DNA of 64,000 nt from Candidatus Latescibacterota bacterium. Lineage in GTDB: Bacteria > Latescibacterota > UBA2968 > UBA8231. Positions 41,205-50,711 of the stretch are shown here, piece by piece. The notes beneath the pieces were generated by a model, which did not search any database, was not told the DNA's origin, and saw nothing but the letters and a program-made list of their open reading frames with translations. The stretch spans positions 5,408,001 through 5,472,000 of the forward strand of contig OZ244561.1 in assembly GCA_965217585.1 (NCBI GenBank), in the 5' to 3' direction. The position numbers were made by a program, and so were the translations under genes. Every line of letters starts with the position of its first letter. The stretch's first letter is position 1.

Positions 41205-42437
41205 ATGCTCATTCGTCGTATCAAACAGACCAACCTGCTCTCATTCGGCCCCGACTCCGGAGGACTCGAACTCAAGCGACTAAATGTATTAATCGGCCCC
41301 AATGGTTCGGGGAAGTCCAATCTTCTAGAGAGCATCGATATCCTCCGGTCGGCTCCGCGAGATTTGGCCGCACCTATCCGCGAGGGCGGAGGCATCCATG
41401 ATTGGATCTGGCGAGGAAAACCGGAAGGTACTGGTACTGCCCGCATCGAGGCCATTGTGGAAAACCCGCAAGGACCGCAGGCGTTGCGATATCGGCTGGG
41501 TTTTGCCGAACGCGGCCAGCGATTTGAGCTGATCGAAGAGCGGATAGAGAACGAACAGAGTTATGCAGAACATGAGGAGCCGTATATCTATTATGATCAG
41601 ACGGACGGACGGGCGTTTCTCACTTTTAAGGATGAGGATGACTTGAGTCCGGAGATACTGGCTACCGTAAAGGCGAAGTTCCCTCATGTTCGTCTTCGGC
41701 TGGGCCGGTACGACTTGCGTCCCGAGGAGATTAAACCGGACCAGTCCATTCTGTCCCAACGCAAAGATCCCGACCTCCCCGAACTGACGTACCTCGGCGA
41801 GGCCCTGAGCCGCATTCGCATTTATCGCGAGTGGTCGCTTGGGCGCGATTCCCCACTGCGTTTGCCACAGAAGCCCGATCTCCCCAACGATTTTCTGCAA
41901 GAGGACGGGAAAAACCTAGCCTTGGTGTTAAACAGCTTCCAAGGTAAGCCAGCGGTAAAGCGGCGTCTGCTGGACGCTTTAAGCAAATTCTACGAAGGCA
42001 TAACCGATTTCCACGTCAAGATTGAAGGCAGTACGGTCCAACTGTTCTTAGAGGAAGGCGACGTGGTCATACCGGCGACGCGTCTTTCAGATGGTACGCT
42101 GCGGTACCTCTGTTTGCTCGCCGTTCTCTGTCACCCGCAGCCGCCGCCTCTCATCTGTATCGAGGAACCCGAACTGGGCCTGCACCCGGATATATTGCCG
42201 ACGGTGAGCAAGTTGTTGCTCGAAGCGTCCGAACGCAGCCAGTTGATTGTAACGACCCATTCGGACATGCTCGTCGATGCCCTGACCAATGAATGGTGGA
42301 GTATTGTAGTTTGTGAAAAGCGCGACGGGCAGACTGTGATGCGCCGTCTCGATGAAGAGAAAATGGCCGCTTGGTTGGAGAACTACCGGCTCGGTGAACT
42401 CTGGAGCAGTGGTGAGATCGGGGGGAATCCTTGGTGA
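41205..42437 (+). CDS. ABC-type (AAA_21-like) ATPase
   Basis: GPNGSGKSN, LSDGTLR, CIEEPELGLHP, TTHS, LGELW..GEIGG. Confidence 0.87.
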   Translation: MLIRRIKQTNLLSFGPDSGGLELKRLNVLIGPNGSGKSNLLESIDILRSAPRDLAAPIREGGGIHDWIWRGKPEGTGTARIEAIVENPQGPQALRYRLGFAERGQRFELIEERIENEQSYAEHEEPYIYYDQTDGRAFLTFKDEDDLSPEILATVKAKFPHVRLRLGRYDLRPEEIKPDQSILSQRKDPDLPELTYLGEALSRIRIYREWSLGRDSPLRLPQKPDLPNDFLQEDGKNLALVLNSFQGKPAVKRRLLDALSKFYEGITDFHVKIEGSTVQLFLEEGDVVIPATRLSDGTLRYLCLLAVLCHPQPPPLICIEEPELGLHPDILPTVSKLLLEASERSQLIVTTHSDMLVDALTNEWWSIVVCEKRDGQTVMRRLDEEKMAAWLENYRLGELWSSGEIGGNPW

Positions 42438-42658
42438 GCGTCAGGGTATATGTTGAGGGCGGTGGAGACTCTAATCAATTAAAAAGACAATGTCGCGATG
42501 GCTTCAGGGAGTTTTTTAGCAAGGCCGGGCTTGAGGGCCGCATGCCGCGCGTCGTCGCTTGCGGTTCTCGGCAAAGAGCTTATGACCGATTTTGTACCGC
42601 CATTAATGAAGCCTCTCCTCATGCGCGACGGCTCATTGACATGCTGCGACAGTCTTAA
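42434..42658 (+). pseudogene. DUF4276-like TOPRIM protein, internally deleted
   Basis: YVEGGGD...ACGSR...AYDRF joined directly to a C-terminal-like ASPHARRL; 74 aa, no DxD-type motif. Confidence 0.6.
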
Positions 42659-43385: not shown

Positions 43386-45323
43386 ATGAAAAGCCTAACC
43401 GCCAATATCCCGCTCAACGCGCCGGCCCACTGGGCCGTGTGGCAGCGTCGTCTCTTCGACGCCTTGGACCAATCGGTGCAGCCCTTCCTCGATCACTTCA
43501 CCCGCGAGGACGGCGAATTTATCTGGCAGGACGAATGGGGCGGCGGCAGCCCCGACGATTTCTACGAGCCATTTTTCAACTGGCCGCTCGTTTATCTGAT
43601 GGGCGGCGGCGAGCACCTGTTGCACTTGGCCGACCGCCAGTGGGAGGCCATCACTTGCCAACTGACCCGCTTAGGCACGGTCAGCAAGGAATACGGCATC
43701 CGCGAAGACCAGATGCACCAAGCCGAAAGCGACATCTGCTTTTACCATTTGTGCTTGGCCCACCCCAACGCCCCCCGGCGCGTCGAACGGGCCTGCCGCT
43801 TTGCCGGCTTTTACCTCAACGAAGACCCTGAAGCGCAAAACTACGACCCCGAGCACAAAATCCTGCGCTCGGGTCTCAACGGCAGCCACGGCCCCTATTT
43901 TGCCCCGCTGGCCGAGCGCGACCACCAAAGCTACAACCCCTTGGGCGGCAGCATGGAAGTGTACAACCTACCCTTTTTCGACCTGCCTAGCATCACCTGC
44001 GTGCAGGACTTGGCCGACCCGGCCAAAGCCCGCTTGATGGGGCAGACCCTGTTCGACCGCTGGCGTCAGGGCGACACCCCGACCAACTTGGCCGTCACCT
44101 CGCTGGCTACCAACGCCTTCCTAATCACCGGCGACGAAAAATACCGCGCTTGGGTAGTAGAATACACCGACGCTTGGGTGGAGCGAGCACAGGCCAACGG
44201 CGGCATGTTGCCGGACAACGTCGGCCTGTCGGGCCAAGTGGGCGAATACTGCGCTGGCAACTGGTACGGCGGGCGCTACGGCTGGACCTTTCCACATGGC
44301 TTTTTGACCTTGCAGAAAGCCACTCTCGACGCGGCGGCCAACGCCTACCTGTTGACCCGCGACCGCGCCTATCTCGACCTGCCGCGCCAGCAGATGGACC
44401 GCATCTTGGAACAAGGGCGCATGGAGGATATTCGCGACCAGTACATGAGCGTGGCCGAGCGCTGGGCAAGCCAATTTGCCGCTATGGGTGAAAAGCGCGA
44501 AACCTTGCTGGTGCCCTACCGCTACGGCGACGCTGGCTGGTTCGACTGGCAGCCCATGAGTCCGGTGTATCCGGTGACGCTGTGGAATTTGTCTATGGAC
44601 GAGGGCGACTGGGAGCGCATGGAGGCCATTCGGCAAAAAGAAGCATTCGACTGGGCCGCGGTGTTCCCCTTCCACAACAAAGAGGACTCGGGCCACGAGG
44701 CTCCTTGGGTGCGCTTTCTGGCCGGAGCCAACCCGACCTATCCAGAGCAAATGTTGCAGGCCACGTACCAAGTGGCCGGCCGTCGCTTGGCCCAAATGCG
44801 TGCCGACCAAGACGTGGGTACCCGCCACCACGTACACCACTGGCAATGGGGCAATCCGGTCTCCTCTGAAGCACTCATCCAGCTAACTATGGGCGGCCCA
44901 CAGCCTATCTACAACGGCGGCCTGCTGCACGCCCGCCTGCGCTACTTTGACGCCCAGCGCCGCCGTCCCGGCCTACCCGCAGACGTCGGGGCCTTGGTGG
45001 AAAAGCTCGCCGCGGACCGCACGGTCGTGCGCTTGGTCAATTTGAATCACAACGAGGGCCGGGAACTGGTCATTCAGGGCGGGGCCTTTGGCGAGCACCG
45101 CTTTGGCCGGGCTACCTATCAAAGCCGCACCAGCGAGTATCCGGGCTGGATGGGTGGCTACGCCGGCACGTACGCGGCCCCGCCCTTGGAGACCGCAGAG
45201 CGCCAAATAGCCGTTGACGGCAAACACTTGAGCATCACCTTACCGCCCCATTGCGAAATCACCCTCGACCTAGAGACTCAGCGCTACGTCAACGAGCCTT
45301 CACACCACGCCGGGCCGTTTTAG
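43386..45323 (+). CDS. Hypothetical protein (645 aa)
   Basis: Long ORF, AGGAG SD, host-like codon use; no motif recognised with confidence. Confidence 0.8.
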   Translation: MKSLTANIPLNAPAHWAVWQRRLFDALDQSVQPFLDHFTREDGEFIWQDEWGGGSPDDFYEPFFNWPLVYLMGGGEHLLHLADRQWEAITCQLTRLGTVSKEYGIREDQMHQAESDICFYHLCLAHPNAPRRVERACRFAGFYLNEDPEAQNYDPEHKILRSGLNGSHGPYFAPLAERDHQSYNPLGGSMEVYNLPFFDLPSITCVQDLADPAKARLMGQTLFDRWRQGDTPTNLAVTSLATNAFLITGDEKYRAWVVEYTDAWVERAQANGGMLPDNVGLSGQVGEYCAGNWYGGRYGWTFPHGFLTLQKATLDAAANAYLLTRDRAYLDLPRQQMDRILEQGRMEDIRDQYMSVAERWASQFAAMGEKRETLLVPYRYGDAGWFDWQPMSPVYPVTLWNLSMDEGDWERMEAIRQKEAFDWAAVFPFHNKEDSGHEAPWVRFLAGANPTYPEQMLQATYQVAGRRLAQMRADQDVGTRHHVHHWQWGNPVSSEALIQLTMGGPQPIYNGGLLHARLRYFDAQRRRPGLPADVGALVEKLAADRTVVRLVNLNHNEGRELVIQGGAFGEHRFGRATYQSRTSEYPGWMGGYAGTYAAPPLETAERQIAVDGKHLSITLPPHCEITLDLETQRYVNEPSHHAGPF

Positions 45324-45328
45324 GCCAT

Positions 45329-45357
45329 TTGACAGGCTATTGCCGCTTTAGTTTATT
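45329..45357 (+). promoter_or_regulatory. Putative sigma-70 promoter
   Basis: TTGACA (45329-34)-N17-TTTATT (45352-57). Confidence 0.5.
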
Positions 45358-45367
45358 CCGGCTAAGT

Positions 45368-45480
45368 GCTCAAAGGGAGCCCTCAAGTCCGCGGTAAGGG
45401 TCAAACCCACCTTCTCAGCAAATAACAGCCTTCTTTCAGCCTGCTACGCGGACGTCAGGCATTAACGAGAGAGGGTTGGC
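45368..45480 (+). ncRNA. Candidate structured cis-regulatory 5' leader
   Basis: Complementary blocks AGCCCTC/GAGGGTT, GTCCGCG/CGCGGAC, GCCTG/CAGGC, GGGT/ACCC. Confidence 0.5.
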
Positions 45481-46191
45481 ATGTCTAGAGCACTTCCCCG
45501 TAAGCCCCATATAGATTCTCTCAAAAAGCAGGCCCGGCAGCTACTCCAGGCGCACCGCGAGGCCCGTCCGGAAAGCCTCCGCAGTATTCGGACCTATATG
45601 CCCCACTTGGGCTCATTGTCCGACGAGGCCATCCTGCAAAGGCCATTTACCTTGCAACAGGCCCAATGCGTCCTCAGCCGCGAGTATGGGTTTGGCAATT
45701 GGTCCGAATTGGTCCGAGCCGTCGAGATTATCCGCCAAGCCGAGTCGGCCATGCTGAACCAAGTCGATGCCGCTCTGCGCAAAGGTCAAGCTATCCATGT
45801 ATTGATCCCCGAGCGCATGGCGGCGGACATCGCTAAAAGGCTGATCGCCCATTGCGGCCAAGATCGGGTACTCTTGGTGCCTCGCATAAGCCAAGAGCCG
45901 ATCAATGTATGGATTGACCGGGTCGCGGAGGCGGCAGTCGTAGTTAGTCATCCTGGAGAGTTGGGCTTTCTCCACATGCGTGAACGCTTGCAAAAACCCG
46001 AAGGGCCATTGGATTTCGAGCGGCTTTTATCTGGAGCTCACGCCTTCGTGAACGTGCCGTTCAGAGATGAAAAGACGCCTTCGATTATCTCCGGCCTGGA
46101 TGAAGAGACAGGGGTTGTCCGCGAGCTGATTTCCATGTATCTGACGGAGTTCTATGGATTATACGGTTCGATAACAGATCATCGCTACTGA
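45481..46191 (+). CDS. Hypothetical protein: LPxxP..LKKQA..AQ..REYGF..W module plus degenerate SecA NBD1-like fragment
   Basis: SecA-like words GQAIHVL, ELGFLHMRE, DEKTPSIISG, EFYGLY in SecA order. Confidence 0.6.
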   Translation: MSRALPRKPHIDSLKKQARQLLQAHREARPESLRSIRTYMPHLGSLSDEAILQRPFTLQQAQCVLSREYGFGNWSELVRAVEIIRQAESAMLNQVDAALRKGQAIHVLIPERMAADIAKRLIAHCGQDRVLLVPRISQEPINVWIDRVAEAAVVVSHPGELGFLHMRERLQKPEGPLDFERLLSGAHAFVNVPFRDEKTPSIISGLDEETGVVRELISMYLTEFYGLYGSITDHRY

Positions 46192-46986: not shown

Positions 46987-47925
46987 ATGAACCAAATCGG
47001 GCCTTTCCCGATCAATAAGACCCACGAAGGCGATTGTTTAGAACTGATTCCGCAACTTCCAGACGAGTCCGTGAATATAGTTGTGACAAGTCCGCCCTAT
47101 TGGGGGCAAAGGCACTCAGAAGGGATCGGTATCGAAAAAGACCCGAGGGATTATCTACGGTTTCTCACGAAAGCCTTTGTAGAGATTTTACCGAAGTTGA
47201 GGCCGGAAGGGATTCTTTGGATTAATATGGGAGACGCTTACAACACCCCTGTGAACTGGAATCAAAAAGCGTGGAAGTTCAGCACCCTAGGTGAGAAAAA
47301 ACAAGGTTTTTCGGAGGACAATTCAGCATACACCAAACCACGGGCGCGACGAAAAGCGTTTATCGACAAGGATGAAACGTGGCTTCAGTATGGCAATCTT
47401 CTGGCGCTCCCATATCGTCTTATTATTTCTCTTTGCGACGCGGGCTACTTGTTCCGGGGAGAAGTGATCTGGCGAAAAAAAAATGCCATGCCAGAGGGCC
47501 GTTGCCGACGCCCGCATCGTCAACACGAATCGATTTACTTGCTGACAAAGAGCGAGCGGCATGGTTTTCGCGTAACGCCTCCGATTAAGAGCGTGTGGGA
47601 GTTCGCAAACGAGAAAATTGACGGGCTCAAGCATTTCTCACGCTTTCCAAAGGAATTGCCAATTCGCTGCATTAAGGCGTACGGAACCTGTGGAGAAGAC
47701 GTCGTGATCTTGGACCCGTTCTCTGGCTCGGGCACTACAGGAACCGCGGCGTTGACCCTTGGCTGTTCCTACATAGGATTTGAAGTTGACCCTGAGCAAG
47801 TTCGGGCCTCCAACAAACGCTTGGAGGAAAGCGAAGGGCCAAATTTGGAATTATTTCCGAAATCGGCGACTCTCCGAAACGACGAACCTAGTGAAAGCAT
47901 CGTCTGGGTCGATGAAGTCACATGA
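46987..47925 (+). CDS. Beta-class amino DNA methyltransferase, probably m4C
   Basis: Motif IV TSPPY before motif I DPFSGSGTT; GDCLE; H..RFP.EL. Confidence 0.9.
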   Translation: MNQIGPFPINKTHEGDCLELIPQLPDESVNIVVTSPPYWGQRHSEGIGIEKDPRDYLRFLTKAFVEILPKLRPEGILWINMGDAYNTPVNWNQKAWKFSTLGEKKQGFSEDNSAYTKPRARRKAFIDKDETWLQYGNLLALPYRLIISLCDAGYLFRGEVIWRKKNAMPEGRCRRPHRQHESIYLLTKSERHGFRVTPPIKSVWEFANEKIDGLKHFSRFPKELPIRCIKAYGTCGEDVVILDPFSGSGTTGTAALTLGCSYIGFEVDPEQVRASNKRLEESEGPNLELFPKSATLRNDEPSESIVWVDEVT

Positions 47926-49014
47926 ATAAATCCGTGCCTTTGCTAGGGGGGTATCGGGAGGAGTCGGATGAGTGTTCTTATTGTAGGAAAAGCACGCTGA
48001 GAAAAAGCCGTCATTTTCTATGTCTTTTCTCTTTGCGTTCCTTTGATCCTGATCTTCTGCGGTGAAGATTTTGCCCAATTCTCCGCGATTGATGGGCTCA
48101 GGACCAGGGAAACTCTTGCAGTCCATCGTCCATAGTGGGGAAATGTAGCTAGCATCAACAAGTGCTTGACTCATAGGAACATCGTCTGTCCGGCGTTCCG
48201 CAAAACTCGCCTTGACGTGAACGACCCCAATCATCCGTTCGTTTGCGCCCTCGCCGACCGTTAGCATAATATCCACTTTGTCTGCTTCAAGGCGGTGACC
48301 AACGTTGATACCGTGAAGAATCCTCTCCTTACGCTCGGAATCTTTACGTACCATGTTGATCCCTTGCTTCGCCAGGGTAGCACCGTAATGTTTTTCGAGA
48401 ACCAACTCCAAGGCCCAACCAGCAGTTCGTTTCCAGCTTTGCGCAAAGTCTAAGCGAGCATACTGGGCAGGATGGTTGTATGGGTCACAGTAGGCGCGAT
48501 ATACGAGAAACCACCAGAGATCGGAGGGGTTAGCTTGGGGCCAGAGTTCAACGGCTTTCATGAATGCATTGGCCACACTTTCCATCTTAATCGTCTCGAC
48601 TCGCTGGTCTTCAATCCCAGAGTTAGCAAGCTGAGCGAGCCCATTTCGCAACGTTAGAACTATTTCTGTGAACTGCTCCACGGTAACACCTTCAAGGCGG
48701 TACGTAGCGTCGTATTCACCATAGGGAAAGTGAAGAATGAGATCATTGTCGACTTCTTCTGGGGTAATTGAGCGTTTTATGGACGGAGCGTTCCCTTCTA
48801 TGCCTTCTGCAAGGTCGCGCAGGGTTTTGCCATAGAGTGAGAGCAGAGACATAACCACATCAAGACCGGGGAGGGCCGCGCCGCTCTCGAGCGCATGGAT
48901 CCAGCCTGGCCCCAAAACAAGGTTACTTTCGACCTGCTCAGACTCAAGTTGGGCTTCCTGACGAAATGTATGCAGTCGCCGAAAAAGCTGTGAGAGGTAA
49001 TCGCTACGGGTCAT
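47851..49014 (-). CDS. Putative type II restriction endonuclease with N-terminal XRE-like HTH
   Basis: QSWKRTAG..LE, DKVD, VHVKASFAER resemble the CCGG-family PD-(D/E)xK variant; next to the MTase. Confidence 0.7.
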   Translation of the reverse strand: MTRSDYLSQLFRRLHTFRQEAQLESEQVESNLVLGPGWIHALESGAALPGLDVVMSLLSLYGKTLRDLAEGIEGNAPSIKRSITPEEVDNDLILHFPYGEYDATYRLEGVTVEQFTEIVLTLRNGLAQLANSGIEDQRVETIKMESVANAFMKAVELWPQANPSDLWWFLVYRAYCDPYNHPAQYARLDFAQSWKRTAGWALELVLEKHYGATLAKQGINMVRKDSERKERILHGINVGHRLEADKVDIMLTVGEGANERMIGVVHVKASFAERRTDDVPMSQALVDASYISPLWTMDCKSFPGPEPINRGELGKIFTAEDQDQRNAKRKDIENDGFFSACFSYNKNTHPTPPDTPLAKARIYSCDFIDPDDAFTRFVVSESRRFRK

Positions 49015-49016
49015 GT

Positions 49017-50711
49017 TTAGCTTTGGAACCAAGCGGCAATGGCTTCGCGGCCGAGTGCGTTGGGGATGTCGGCAGCGCGGAGCCAGCCCTTGCGGGCGAT
49101 GCCGATGCCGTAGCCGAGATGATCCAAGCCGGCGATGCTGTGGGCGTCGGTGTTGACGGCGATTTGGACGCCGTGGTCGCGCGCCTTTTTGACGTGCCGC
49201 CAGTCGAGGTCGAGCCGCGCCGGATGGGCGTTGATTTCGAGGGCCACCCCATAGCGGGCGGCGGCTTCGATGATCGAGTCGATATCGACGGCGTAGCCTT
49301 CGCGGTTGAGGAGCAAGCGCCCGGTTGGATGACCGACGATGGTGGCAGCCGGGTGCTCGATGGCGCGGACGATGCGGGCGGTCATGGCGTCGCGGCTCAG
49401 GTTGAACTGCGAATGGACCGAGACGACCACGAAGTCGAATTGCGCAAGCAGGTCGTCTTCGTAGTCCAGCGAGCCGTCGCCGAGGATATCCGACTCAATG
49501 CCCTTGAAGATGCGAAAGGGGGCCAATTCCTCGTTGAGCCGGTCGATTTCCTCCCACTGACGCTGGACTTCCGCAACGCGAAGCCCCCCGGCGTAGGCCG
49601 CAGTCTGGCTGTGATCGGCAATGCCCATGTACTCAAAGCCGCGTTCTTGCACGGCACGGGCCATGGCCTCTAGGCTGTCGGCCCCATCCGAATAGGTCGA
49701 ATGCATGTGGAGCATGCCGCGAATGTCGGCGGTCGTTACTAGCTCGGGCAGCGCGTCGTCGGCCGCGGCTTCGACTTCGCCCTGGTTCTCCCGTAACTCC
49801 GGCGGAATGTAGGCGAGTCCCAAGGCAGCAAATAAGTCCGCTTCATCCGCGCACTCGATGCGCTCATCGTCGCGCCAGAGCCCGCGTTCGTCGAGGACTA
49901 GCCCGCGCTCTGCGGCCCTAGCGCACAATGCGGCGCGGTGTTCCTCGCTGCCTGTGTAGTAGTGTAAAGCGGTGGGAAAGGCATCGTCTGGAACCACGTG
50001 CAAGTTGGCTTGCAGCCCGTTGGACAGCCGCCCCACGCTCGGGGCGAGGATTTCGGCGATATCCGGGTGGGCGACAAAGGCCGCAGTCGCAGCCTCAGCG
50101 TCGGTGGTGCTGAGTACGAAGTCGAGCTGTTGGACTGTCTCCCGCGCTCGGCGCAGCTCTCCGGCGACGGCGAGGCGCTGCGCGTGGGAGCCCAAGGCGG
50201 CGAGCAGACTTTGAGCGCTTTGGTGCGCGGTATCGGCGTGGCAGTGGCCCTCGTGGGCGCGGATGTACTCGACGCCTTTGAGGATGGTTGCTTGGGTCTT
50301 GGAACCAAACCCCTTGAGGGCGGCGAGTTGGCCGGCGCGGCAGGCTTGTTCGAGGGCATCGAGGGTCTCTATGCCGAGGGCCTTGCGGATGGCGTTGATC
50401 TTGCGCGGCCCCAACCCGGGGACCCGCAGCATGTCGAGCAGGCCCTCGGGCGTTGCGGCCCGCAGCTTTTCATAGGCTTGAGCCGTGCCGGTGTCGGCGA
50501 ACTCGGCGACCAGTTCGGCCACGCTGTCGCCGATGCCCTTGACCTCGGTCAGGGTCCCGGCGGCGAGGAGCTCGTCGAGGGGGGACGTTAGGGTTTCGAG
50601 GGCGCGCACGGCATTGGCATAGGCGCGGACCCGGAAGGGAGAGGCCCCGCTGAGTTCGAGGAGGGTGGCGTACTCTTCGACAAAATCCGCTGCGTTGCGG
50701 GCCGTTATCAT
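49017..50711 (-). CDS. polX: PolX-PHP protein with non-canonical polymerase site
   Basis: PFRVRAY, HhH motifs KGIG/PGLGP/KGFG, YIPPELRE; PHP HMHSTYSDG, DHS, GHPT, EIN, TDAH. Confidence 0.9.
   Translation of the reverse strand: MITARNAADFVEEYATLLELSGASPFRVRAYANAVRALETLTSPLDELLAAGTLTEVKGIGDSVAELVAEFADTGTAQAYEKLRAATPEGLLDMLRVPGLGPRKINAIRKALGIETLDALEQACRAGQLAALKGFGSKTQATILKGVEYIRAHEGHCHADTAHQSAQSLLAALGSHAQRLAVAGELRRARETVQQLDFVLSTTDAEAATAAFVAHPDIAEILAPSVGRLSNGLQANLHVVPDDAFPTALHYYTGSEEHRAALCARAAERGLVLDERGLWRDDERIECADEADLFAALGLAYIPPELRENQGEVEAAADDALPELVTTADIRGMLHMHSTYSDGADSLEAMARAVQERGFEYMGIADHSQTAAYAGGLRVAEVQRQWEEIDRLNEELAPFRIFKGIESDILGDGSLDYEDDLLAQFDFVVVSVHSQFNLSRDAMTARIVRAIEHPAATIVGHPTGRLLLNREGYAVDIDSIIEAAARYGVALEINAHPARLDLDWRHVKKARDHGVQIAVNTDAHSIAGLDHLGYGIGIARKGWLRAADIPNALGREAIAAWFQS

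Follow-up and report, generated by a model that had tools for sequence, protein, structure and literature searches.

Positions 45364-45480 of the window (the whole stretch of DNA that was analyzed, 64,000 nucleotides) are a member of a large, uncatalogued family of pseudoknotted 5′ leaders of about 125 to 140 nt that carry their own promoter. The conserved fold of these leaders locks the Shine-Dalgarno (SD) sequence into an 11-bp helix, P3, just before the start codon. Promoter, leader, and the first ~82 codons of the gene are inherited and shuffled as one cassette, which sits before at least a dozen unrelated C-terminal domains. There is hardly any doubt that the leader is a real cis-regulatory structured RNA, and it very probably acts via sequestration of the SD sequence.

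Promoter and conserved fold of the leader

The leader precedes a 236-aa ORF on the forward strand, with its ATG at 45481 and its end at 46191, and every coordinate of the original prediction was found to be exact. The functional element comprises approximately 45364-45480 (~117 nt) and the start codon. The features of the site are the following.

45329..45357, forward strand: sigma-70-like promoter (-35 box TTGACA at 45329-34, 17-nt spacer, -10 box TTTATT at 45352-57)
45362..45486, forward strand: leader RNA, matched by covariance models R1 (140.6 bits) and R2 (121.4 bits)
45368-71 (GCUC) with 45377-80 (GAGC), forward strand: P1 hairpin, 86.5% paired, both-side changes at 4/4 pairs
45387-45392 (GUCCGC) with 45448-45453 (GCGGAC), forward strand: pseudoknot of 6 bp, 98.4-99.1% paired, compensatory changes at 5/6 pairs
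45393-94 (GG) with 45410-11 (CC), forward strand: outer stem of P2, 91.3% paired
45398-401 (GGGU) with 45405-08 (ACCC), forward strand: inner stem of P2, 98.8% paired, compensatory changes at 4/4 pairs
45427..45437 (AGCCUUCUUUC), forward strand: 5′ strand of P3, anti-SD, 95.3% paired, compensatory changes at 9/11 pairs
45439-43 (GCCUG) with 45456-60 (CAGGC), forward strand: P4 hairpin, 98.1% paired, compensatory changes at 5/5 pairs
45467..45477 (GAGAGAGGGUU), forward strand: 3′ strand of P3, SD region, 4 nt before the AUG
45481..45735, forward strand: N-terminal helical module, aa 1-85, with the pattern MSxxLPxxP..L.KKQA+.L ... AQ.V.AREYGF..W (alignments A1 and A7)
45736..46191, forward strand: C-terminal ~150 aa and stop codon, no assigned fold, with a weak ankyrin-like signal at aa 170-218

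The neighbors of the ORF are unrelated and give no sign of an operon. The upstream neighbor is a 645-aa ORF that matches no family, and the opposite strand carries a PRK gene of the uridine-kinase type and, after it, a paired DNA methylase and restriction enzyme.

The TTGACA-N17-TTTATT promoter that had been proposed is present, and its position is conserved, since the best TTGACA-N16-18-TATAAT-like pair ends 8 to 12 nt 5′ of P1 in 53 of 63 homologous leaders. The RNA is therefore predicted to begin at the leader motif, with a transcript start that would lie at approximately 45362-45365. RNA-library contigs, from four runs in three studies, span 45336-45577, with 45870-46148 covered in addition by one of the runs; the ends, strand, and level of transcripts are not readable from such contigs, the libraries possibly contain DNA, and no conclusion follows from the gaps in coverage of the gene. 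Two of the contigs start at 45336 and 45349, i.e., upstream of the predicted transcript start.

Within the fold, the P1 loop (AAAGG) is purine rich and SD-like, P2 has a conserved UAA/A internal loop between its stems and a variable triloop at its tip, and the loop of P4 carries the 3′ strand of the pseudoknot (GCGGAC, 45448-53). P3 is also present in the MFE fold of the leader and in the RNAalifold consensus, and the AUG is located 4 to 6 nt downstream of P3 across the leaders. In an alignment of 63 distinct leaders made with the second model, R2 (alignment A8), 95.4% of 2,005 cells were paired and compensatory changes were found at 28 of the 32 pairs; none of 500 shuffles reached these scores on any of five measures, and slid controls were 41.7 to 54.9% paired, numbers to be read with the knowledge that the alignment was fitted to the nested helices and that the kinship of the sequences inflates the shuffle test. 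Alignment A6, of 54 sequences, agrees, and the range over both alignments was 95.4 to 95.8% paired cells and 24 to 28 of 32 pairs with compensatory changes. The pseudoknot had been left out of both search models, R1 and R2, yet it covaries. Over the 63 leaders, which range from 124 to 143 nt in length, conservation is ≥90% at 45 of 125 positions, with variation in stem sequence and linker length around this near-invariant core. The fold of the single sequence is modestly better than that of shuffled sequences (z, -2.14; 5 of 200 shuffles were equally good), and the case for the predicted structure rests mainly on the comparison of homologues, not on the single-sequence fold. The leader is a conserved, covarying structured 5′-UTR domain that is overlapped by its expression platform, the SD sequence in P3.

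These data bear on several features of the original prediction. The structured, SD-sequestering, and pseudoknotted 5′ UTR that it described is borne out by the covariation over the 63 leaders, with P3 paired in 95.3% of cases. The pairing of GTCCGCG with CGCGGAC was recovered as a 6-bp core (GUCCGC:GCGGAC; 98.4% paired; 5/6 pairs with compensatory changes), and comparison of the homologues likewise upheld the GCCTG/CAGGC hairpin (98.1%; 5/5 pairs) and the small GGGT-CAA-ACCC hairpin at 45398-45408 (98.8%; 4/4 pairs). Two helices had not been noticed, namely, P3 (45427-37/45467-77) and the 5′ hairpin P1 (45368-71/45377-80). The one pairing that had to be given up is that between AGCCCUC (45378-84) and GAGGGUU (45471-77), by which the SD sequence was thought to be covered. 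The two segments are complementary in the window, but in the homologues, they are paired in 72.3% of cases as compared with a mean of 73.1% in shuffled sequences, and since 399 of 500 shuffles scored as high, we rejected this pairing as a conserved helix. According to the alignments, the predicted partner of the SD sequence is CCUUCUUUC (45429-37) in place of AGCCCUC.

Two further readings of the leader were considered and rejected. A pairing of AAGUGCUC with codons 4 to 6 (GAGCACUU) occurs in the window's close orthologues; it is not a family feature because the paralogue group lacks the complement and synonymous sites vary. A K-turn or a T-loop in P2 was excluded by eye, the covariation fixing a 4-bp stem with a triloop. 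In a search for rRNA or tRNA mimicry with core patterns and blastn-short in the window's own genome, the exact matches were the two leaders only, accompanied by many chance near-matches.

It has also to be considered that there is no functional RNA at all and that the upstream similarity stems from recent duplication or gene conversion among paralogues. The family is multicopy, as this explanation would have it, but several observations led us to rule it out. Locus L013 encodes a protein of only 51% identity next to a different upstream gene, and its leader is nearly invariant from AAGUGCUC to the start codon and contains a compensatory change within the pseudoknot. Members of a paralogue group of ~235 aa, one copy of which is found in the window's own genome, are 36 to 39% identical over the module and possess the same leader with further compensatory differences. 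In codons 1 to 16 of 43 distinct genes, third positions are free to vary; a conserved Leu codon, for example, ends in T in 16, A in 18, C in 7, and G in 2 genes. The constraint thus extends no further than the start codon, beyond which synonymous sites are saturated, in contrast to the invariant leader core. Considering also the compensatory changes in 28 of 32 pairs and the conservation of the element across phyla, recent duplication or gene conversion is an extremely improbable explanation.

Association of the leader with an N-terminal protein module

The module is ~82 aa long and net basic, as read from its sequence. The 236-aa ORF matched no family of Pfam or NCBIfam, the sole Pfam score being one to OST-HTH (E = 0.089) below the cutoff, and a comparison of the module with PDB sequences gave nothing below E = 0.057. 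At E ≤ 1e-3, the A7 profile retrieved 9,515 representative clusters; the match begins within the first 20 residues for 145 of the best 150, and a cluster look-up of 10 top module proteins returned no names. Modules are 30 to 45% identical to one another, and stand-alone module ORFs of ~100 to 140 aa exist. Relatives of the entire ORF amount to ~49 full-length proteins of 47 to 96% identity (50 of 1,374 candidates at E ≤ 1e-3). A PADLOC screen for defense systems gave nothing for the window protein and generic AAA+ or Ank matches only, in 2 of 8 module proteins, and a search of viral contigs gave 23 pattern matches and no relatives.

The domains that follow the module at leader loci are FliM, FliG_N, FliG_C (once with a MotA-loop fragment), sigma-54 AAA+, ankyrin, Clp_N, bifunctional nuclease (BFN), or nothing recognizable, and the wider protein search adds a ClpX zinc finger, the Lon N-domain, STAS/SpoIIE, a T2SS-type ATPase, and glyoxalase. 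Many module entries are named "ankyrin repeat protein," some of them from Gemmataceae and Pseudomonadota. In line with the original prediction, the domain scans of module proteins show the module joined to C-terminal domains of unrelated kinds, ankyrin repeats among them. As for the window ORF itself, its C terminus had no match above the cutoff to the Pfam Ank families, and the best match of the A1 profile to PDB sequences was to designed ankyrin repeats (E = 0.0035), which we regard as a lead only. No pathway or transport theme was found among the controlled genes, the module being their only shared part.

The 54 distinct leaders comprise 43 with a full module directly behind them, 4 with a frameshifted or truncated module, and 7 with none. 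Four of the latter seven genes still begin with an MSKxLP-like sequence, and the other three represent one SnoaL/DUF4440-like gene family; at one locus (L051), such a gene is followed by a second leader and then by a 104-aa module-only ORF. Model R1, built from 11 leaders, gave full-length matches ending at ATG+6 in 39 of 45 loci, these being all of the loci that contain a module N terminus or a leader; of the six without a match, three are protein matches due to chance, two are ORFs truncated at residue 23, and one is a fragment of the C terminus. Many of these loci had been fetched via the module, and the association was therefore determined in both directions, and with both models, in two whole genomes. 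In genome G157, 18 module matches fall within 17 ORFs, and 16 leaders are present; each of these leaders stands before a module ORF, which leaves a single module ORF without a leader (16/17). For one ORF of this genome, the detected modules are located ~380 nt into the ORF. The agreement in genome G161 was 12/12 in both directions, which brings the totals to 28/28 leaders that stand before a module ORF and 28/29 module ORFs that are preceded by a leader. The window's own 7.3-Mb genome contains exactly two leaders according to R1, one before each of its two module genes.

A number of loci depart from this association. (i) The leader at locus L092 precedes a FliG protein that keeps only ~11 module residues, and no module was detected at E ≤ 0.01 in the genome that holds it (G065, 88% complete). 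(ii) In this genome and genome G100, neither of which has a detectable module, three of the four leaders (L097, L101, and L102) have decayed and lack either a start codon or an ORF; the leaders of these two genomes do not decide between the models of leader function. (iii) A shortened module fused to glyoxalase (VOC) had no leader in four of four cases. This VOC-type module differs from the leader-linked module also in that it starts at about residue 9 and lacks LPxxP. Module copies of Rhizobium and Phyllobacterium are annotated as VOC family proteins, and the module of locus L020 aligns weakly, below the cutoff, to positions 5 to 56 of PF20066, Glyoxalase_8 (E = 0.0043).

As to its distribution, the leader gave 161 matches at E ≤ 1e-3 in 57 of 151 sampled genomes of the phylum, with up to 16 copies per genome. 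In PLSDB, a full-length module was found in four records, namely, Burkholderia cenocepacia, Burkholderia arboris, Variovorax paradoxus, and Methylosinus sp., and in all four, the leader directly precedes the module (R2, 42.3 to 47.5 bits; E, ~1e-9 to 1e-11). A blastn search with the Methylosinus leader gave matches confined to the B. cenocepacia, B. arboris, Variovorax, and Methylosinus records. Ankyrin-repeat Pfam matches were present in all three proteobacterial module proteins scanned, the one in B. cenocepacia being weak. The leader core is hence common to Latescibacterota-type genomes and Alpha- and Betaproteobacteria. Taken together, the 43 full and 4 broken modules behind 54 distinct leaders, the counts of 28/28 and 28/29 in two genomes, and the 4/4 PLSDB records bear out the proposal that leader and module form a portable unit.

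Candidate effectors of the leader

The folded state is presumably translationally OFF, and a trans-acting effector that stabilizes the core formed by the pseudoknot, P2, and P4 would set how often P3 opens. Judging from the sequences, the module is the most likely effector, a view that we hold with somewhat less than even confidence. It is favored for the following reasons. (i) The link between leader and module is near 1:1 from both sides and survives very deep divergence. (ii) Module-only ORFs exist, one of which lies beside a leader-controlled non-module gene (L051). (iii) The module is basic. Furthermore, the leader is located directly upstream of the gene of the presumed binder, as autoregulatory leaders require, in the 43 cases (and 4 broken ones) of 54 given above, and riboswitch regulons are usually less tightly 1:1 with one protein part than this leader-module pair. 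The module protein would bind the leader of its own and of sibling mRNAs, resulting in autogenous translational feedback that would be inherited by any domain fused behind the module. This feedback may be released when the protein engages a partner, as with ribosomal-protein leaders, because many of the fused domains bind partners (FliG, FliM, Clp_N, Lon N, ankyrin, and sigma-54 AAA+). The full scheme would be a transferable autoregulatory cassette in which free module clamps its own and sibling leaders, so closing the ribosome-binding site, and a fused partner-binding domain gains partner-titrated translation feedback; as a whole, it is a tentative and rather doubtful reading.

Several observations speak against the module as the effector. 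It matches no known RNA-binding family, and cross-talk of every module on every leader would be expected in genomes that have as many as 16 copies. Leaders occur before genes without a module (the SnoaL/DUF4440-like genes, 3 of 54, and the FliG gene of L092), and modules occur without a leader (the VOC type, 4/4, and one G157 ORF). The start of the RNA-library contigs at 45336 and 45349, upstream of the predicted transcript start, also counts against it. In addition, 45 near-invariant nucleotides across phyla are typical of small-molecule aptamers, which would fit an orphan riboswitch, in which the core of pseudoknot, P2, and P4 would bind a small molecule or ion and lock P3 over the SD sequence, the module being related to the same signal, for example by sensing the same ligand. 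The complex fold with ≥90% conservation at 45 of 125 positions and with variable stems and linkers, the retention of the core between Latescibacterota-type genomes and Alpha- and Betaproteobacteria, and the occurrence of the leader before non-module genes (the L051b family and L092) are consistent with a riboswitch, and a number of up to 16 copies per genome is also seen for some signaling riboswitches. Against it, the controlled genes include none that is typical of a metabolic or transport regulon, all 28 leaders of the two whole genomes precede module ORFs, no Rfam riboswitch matches, and the C-terminal domains suggest no ligand. On these sequence comparisons, we consider a riboswitch unlikely.

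Co-inheritance alone is no proof of interaction, since fusions drag along the upstream region of an N-terminal domain. The link could accordingly be positional only. The leader would then regulate translation in a generic way, be it as an SD trap that resembles a thermometer, as the target of an sRNA or of an unrelated RNA-binding protein, or as an element for stability or standby, and fusions that keep the 5′ part of the gene would automatically keep promoter and UTR. P3 contains several G-U and A-U pairs, as might be expected of an RNA thermometer, but the fold comprises five helices, a pseudoknot, and 45 near-invariant positions and is far more elaborate than those of known thermometers. 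A helix in which the P1 purine tract would alternatively pair with the anti-SD strand, which would suit a generic regulator, is energetically possible (mean, -6.7 kcal/mol) but does not go beyond what composition gives, 56 of 500 shuffles being as high. Moreover, the pair is retained from both sides despite modules that are only 30 to 45% identical, the leader is kept by 28 of 29 module ORFs, and the association crosses phyla. A purely positional link thus appears distinctly unlikely, and the module continues to be our preferred candidate for the effector.

Relevance and relation to known systems

The original prediction had named no matching riboswitch, and a scan of positions 45200-45600 of the window with the 4,227 models of Rfam 15 agrees with it, giving no match at E ≤ 10; an Rfam scan of the proteobacterial loci L094-L096 gave an unrelated group II intron fragment only. 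A literature search that included PMC11109978, PMC8632094, and PMC5737381 found no description of the motif, with the proviso that supplementary motif lists could hold one; the words ankyrin, Burkholderia, glyoxalase, and Gemmatimon* have no occurrences in the main text of these three articles. A passage of PMC11109978 describes autoregulation by ribosomal proteins.

It is usual for a structured leader or a riboswitch to belong with one gene or one pathway, whereas the leader described here is tied near 1:1 to a protein domain and moves with it to positions before many different proteins. If the module binds the leader, the two would constitute a natural plug-in autoregulatory cassette, of interest for the evolution of gene regulation and for synthetic biology parts. 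If the cassette reading is true, it would represent a general, modular way in which the synthesis of a binding protein is adjusted to how abundant its target is, and one that has been employed hundreds of times and in different phyla. If, alternatively, a small molecule is bound, the leader would define a new class of riboswitch that is widespread, one phylum containing at least 161 copies and the Proteobacteria further ones, and its ligand would hint at the function of an unnamed module present in ~9,500 protein clusters. The question can be tested directly with an RNA of ~120 nt and a protein of 85 aa, and Variovorax paradoxus and Methylosinus are culturable, nonpathogenic hosts of the pair.

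Two kinds of known systems are closest to this leader. SAM-II/SAM-V, preQ1-II/III, and guanidine-III are translational OFF riboswitches with the SD sequence within a pseudoknot. The leader resembles them in its 5′-UTR pseudoknot, in the location of the SD sequence inside a conserved helix, in a conserved junction core between variable stems, and in having no terminator; it differs from them in that it is larger (five helices and ~117 nt), matches no Rfam model at E ≤ 10, has no assigned ligand, and precedes genes that share an N-terminal module, not a pathway. Ribosomal-protein leaders (the S15 and L20 pseudoknots) and the ThrRS operator are autoregulatory, protein-binding mRNA leaders. As in these, a structured and often pseudoknotted leader lies over the ribosome-binding site directly upstream of the gene of the presumed binder; unlike in these, the presumed binder is a promiscuous N-terminal module without a recognized RNA-binding fold, present in up to 16 copies per genome before different proteins. 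We regard the leader as a new and widespread class of RNA that belongs to a known kind, the translational leader, and is unusual in traveling near 1:1 with a protein domain.

Genes flanking the leader in the window

Genes noted around the leader-module gene (window positions):

41205-42437, + strand, AAA_21 (AbiEii/OLD-like) ATPase
42431-42658, + strand, 75-aa ORF, its start overlapped by the stop of the AAA_21 ATPase gene
43386-45323, + strand, 645-aa ORF, directly upstream of the leader promoter
46987-47925, + strand, N6/N4 DNA methylase
47851-49032, - strand, HTH_31 and BsaWI-like restriction endonuclease, adjoining the methylase gene
49017-50711, - strand, PolX-type DNA polymerase with HHH, pol-beta thumb and PHP domains

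On the upstream side, the AAA_21 ATPase and the 75-aa ORF may form a defence-type two-gene unit. The 645-aa ORF matched no Pfam family at E<=1e-3, and its C-terminal end is conserved among the close relatives L006-L012. Downstream, the methylase and the endonuclease probably constitute a type II restriction-modification pair.

Variant and incomplete loci, and a nearby intron fragment

At L051, a leader variant precedes a gene that lacks the module:

L051 1987-3123, - strand, leader variant and 337-aa SnoaL/DUF4440-like protein without module

This variant reads GUCCGCC-AAAA in place of GUCCGCGG-NAA. Approximately 100 nt past the SnoaL/DUF4440-like gene there is a second leader, followed by a 104-aa module-only ORF, and the same layout is shared by L044 and L048. 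Gaps of ~1 kb between leader and module are a repeated feature within the window's genus, where at least seven genomes have them.

Among the leader-module copies from MAGs, many were frameshifted, shortened or without a start codon (L049, L073, L077, L078, L080, L089, L017, L097, L101, and L102); either these sequences are misassembled or members of the family often become pseudogenes. In the Burkholderia cenocepacia module-ankyrin ORF (L104 1630-2913), there is an apparent frame change after ~330 aa in this assembly, and ankyrin-like sequence is carried on by overlapping long ORFs. The Methylosinus locus, L096, contains an intron fragment ~1 kb upstream of its leader, which is unrelated to the leader-module finding:

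L096 1-49, - strand, group II intron fragment (RF01999, 36.9 bits)

Fusions to flagellar motor domains

At L092, positions 1630-2691 encode a FliG-like protein (FliG_N and FliG_M) in which the leader is kept and the module is reduced to its first ~11 residues; the module was not found at E<=0.01 in the genome of this locus (G065, 88% complete). The module ORF of L059 (1501-3165) encodes a 555-aa module protein that carries FliG_C together with a MotA-like fragment; residues 316 to 378 of the protein align to positions 71 to 133 of MotA, in the cytoplasmic loop of this stator protein. L058 and L053 were noted alongside L059. In the flagellar motor, the FliG_C surface and the MotA cytoplasmic loop contact one another. 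A module protein of the L059 type may act as a motor decoy or brake.
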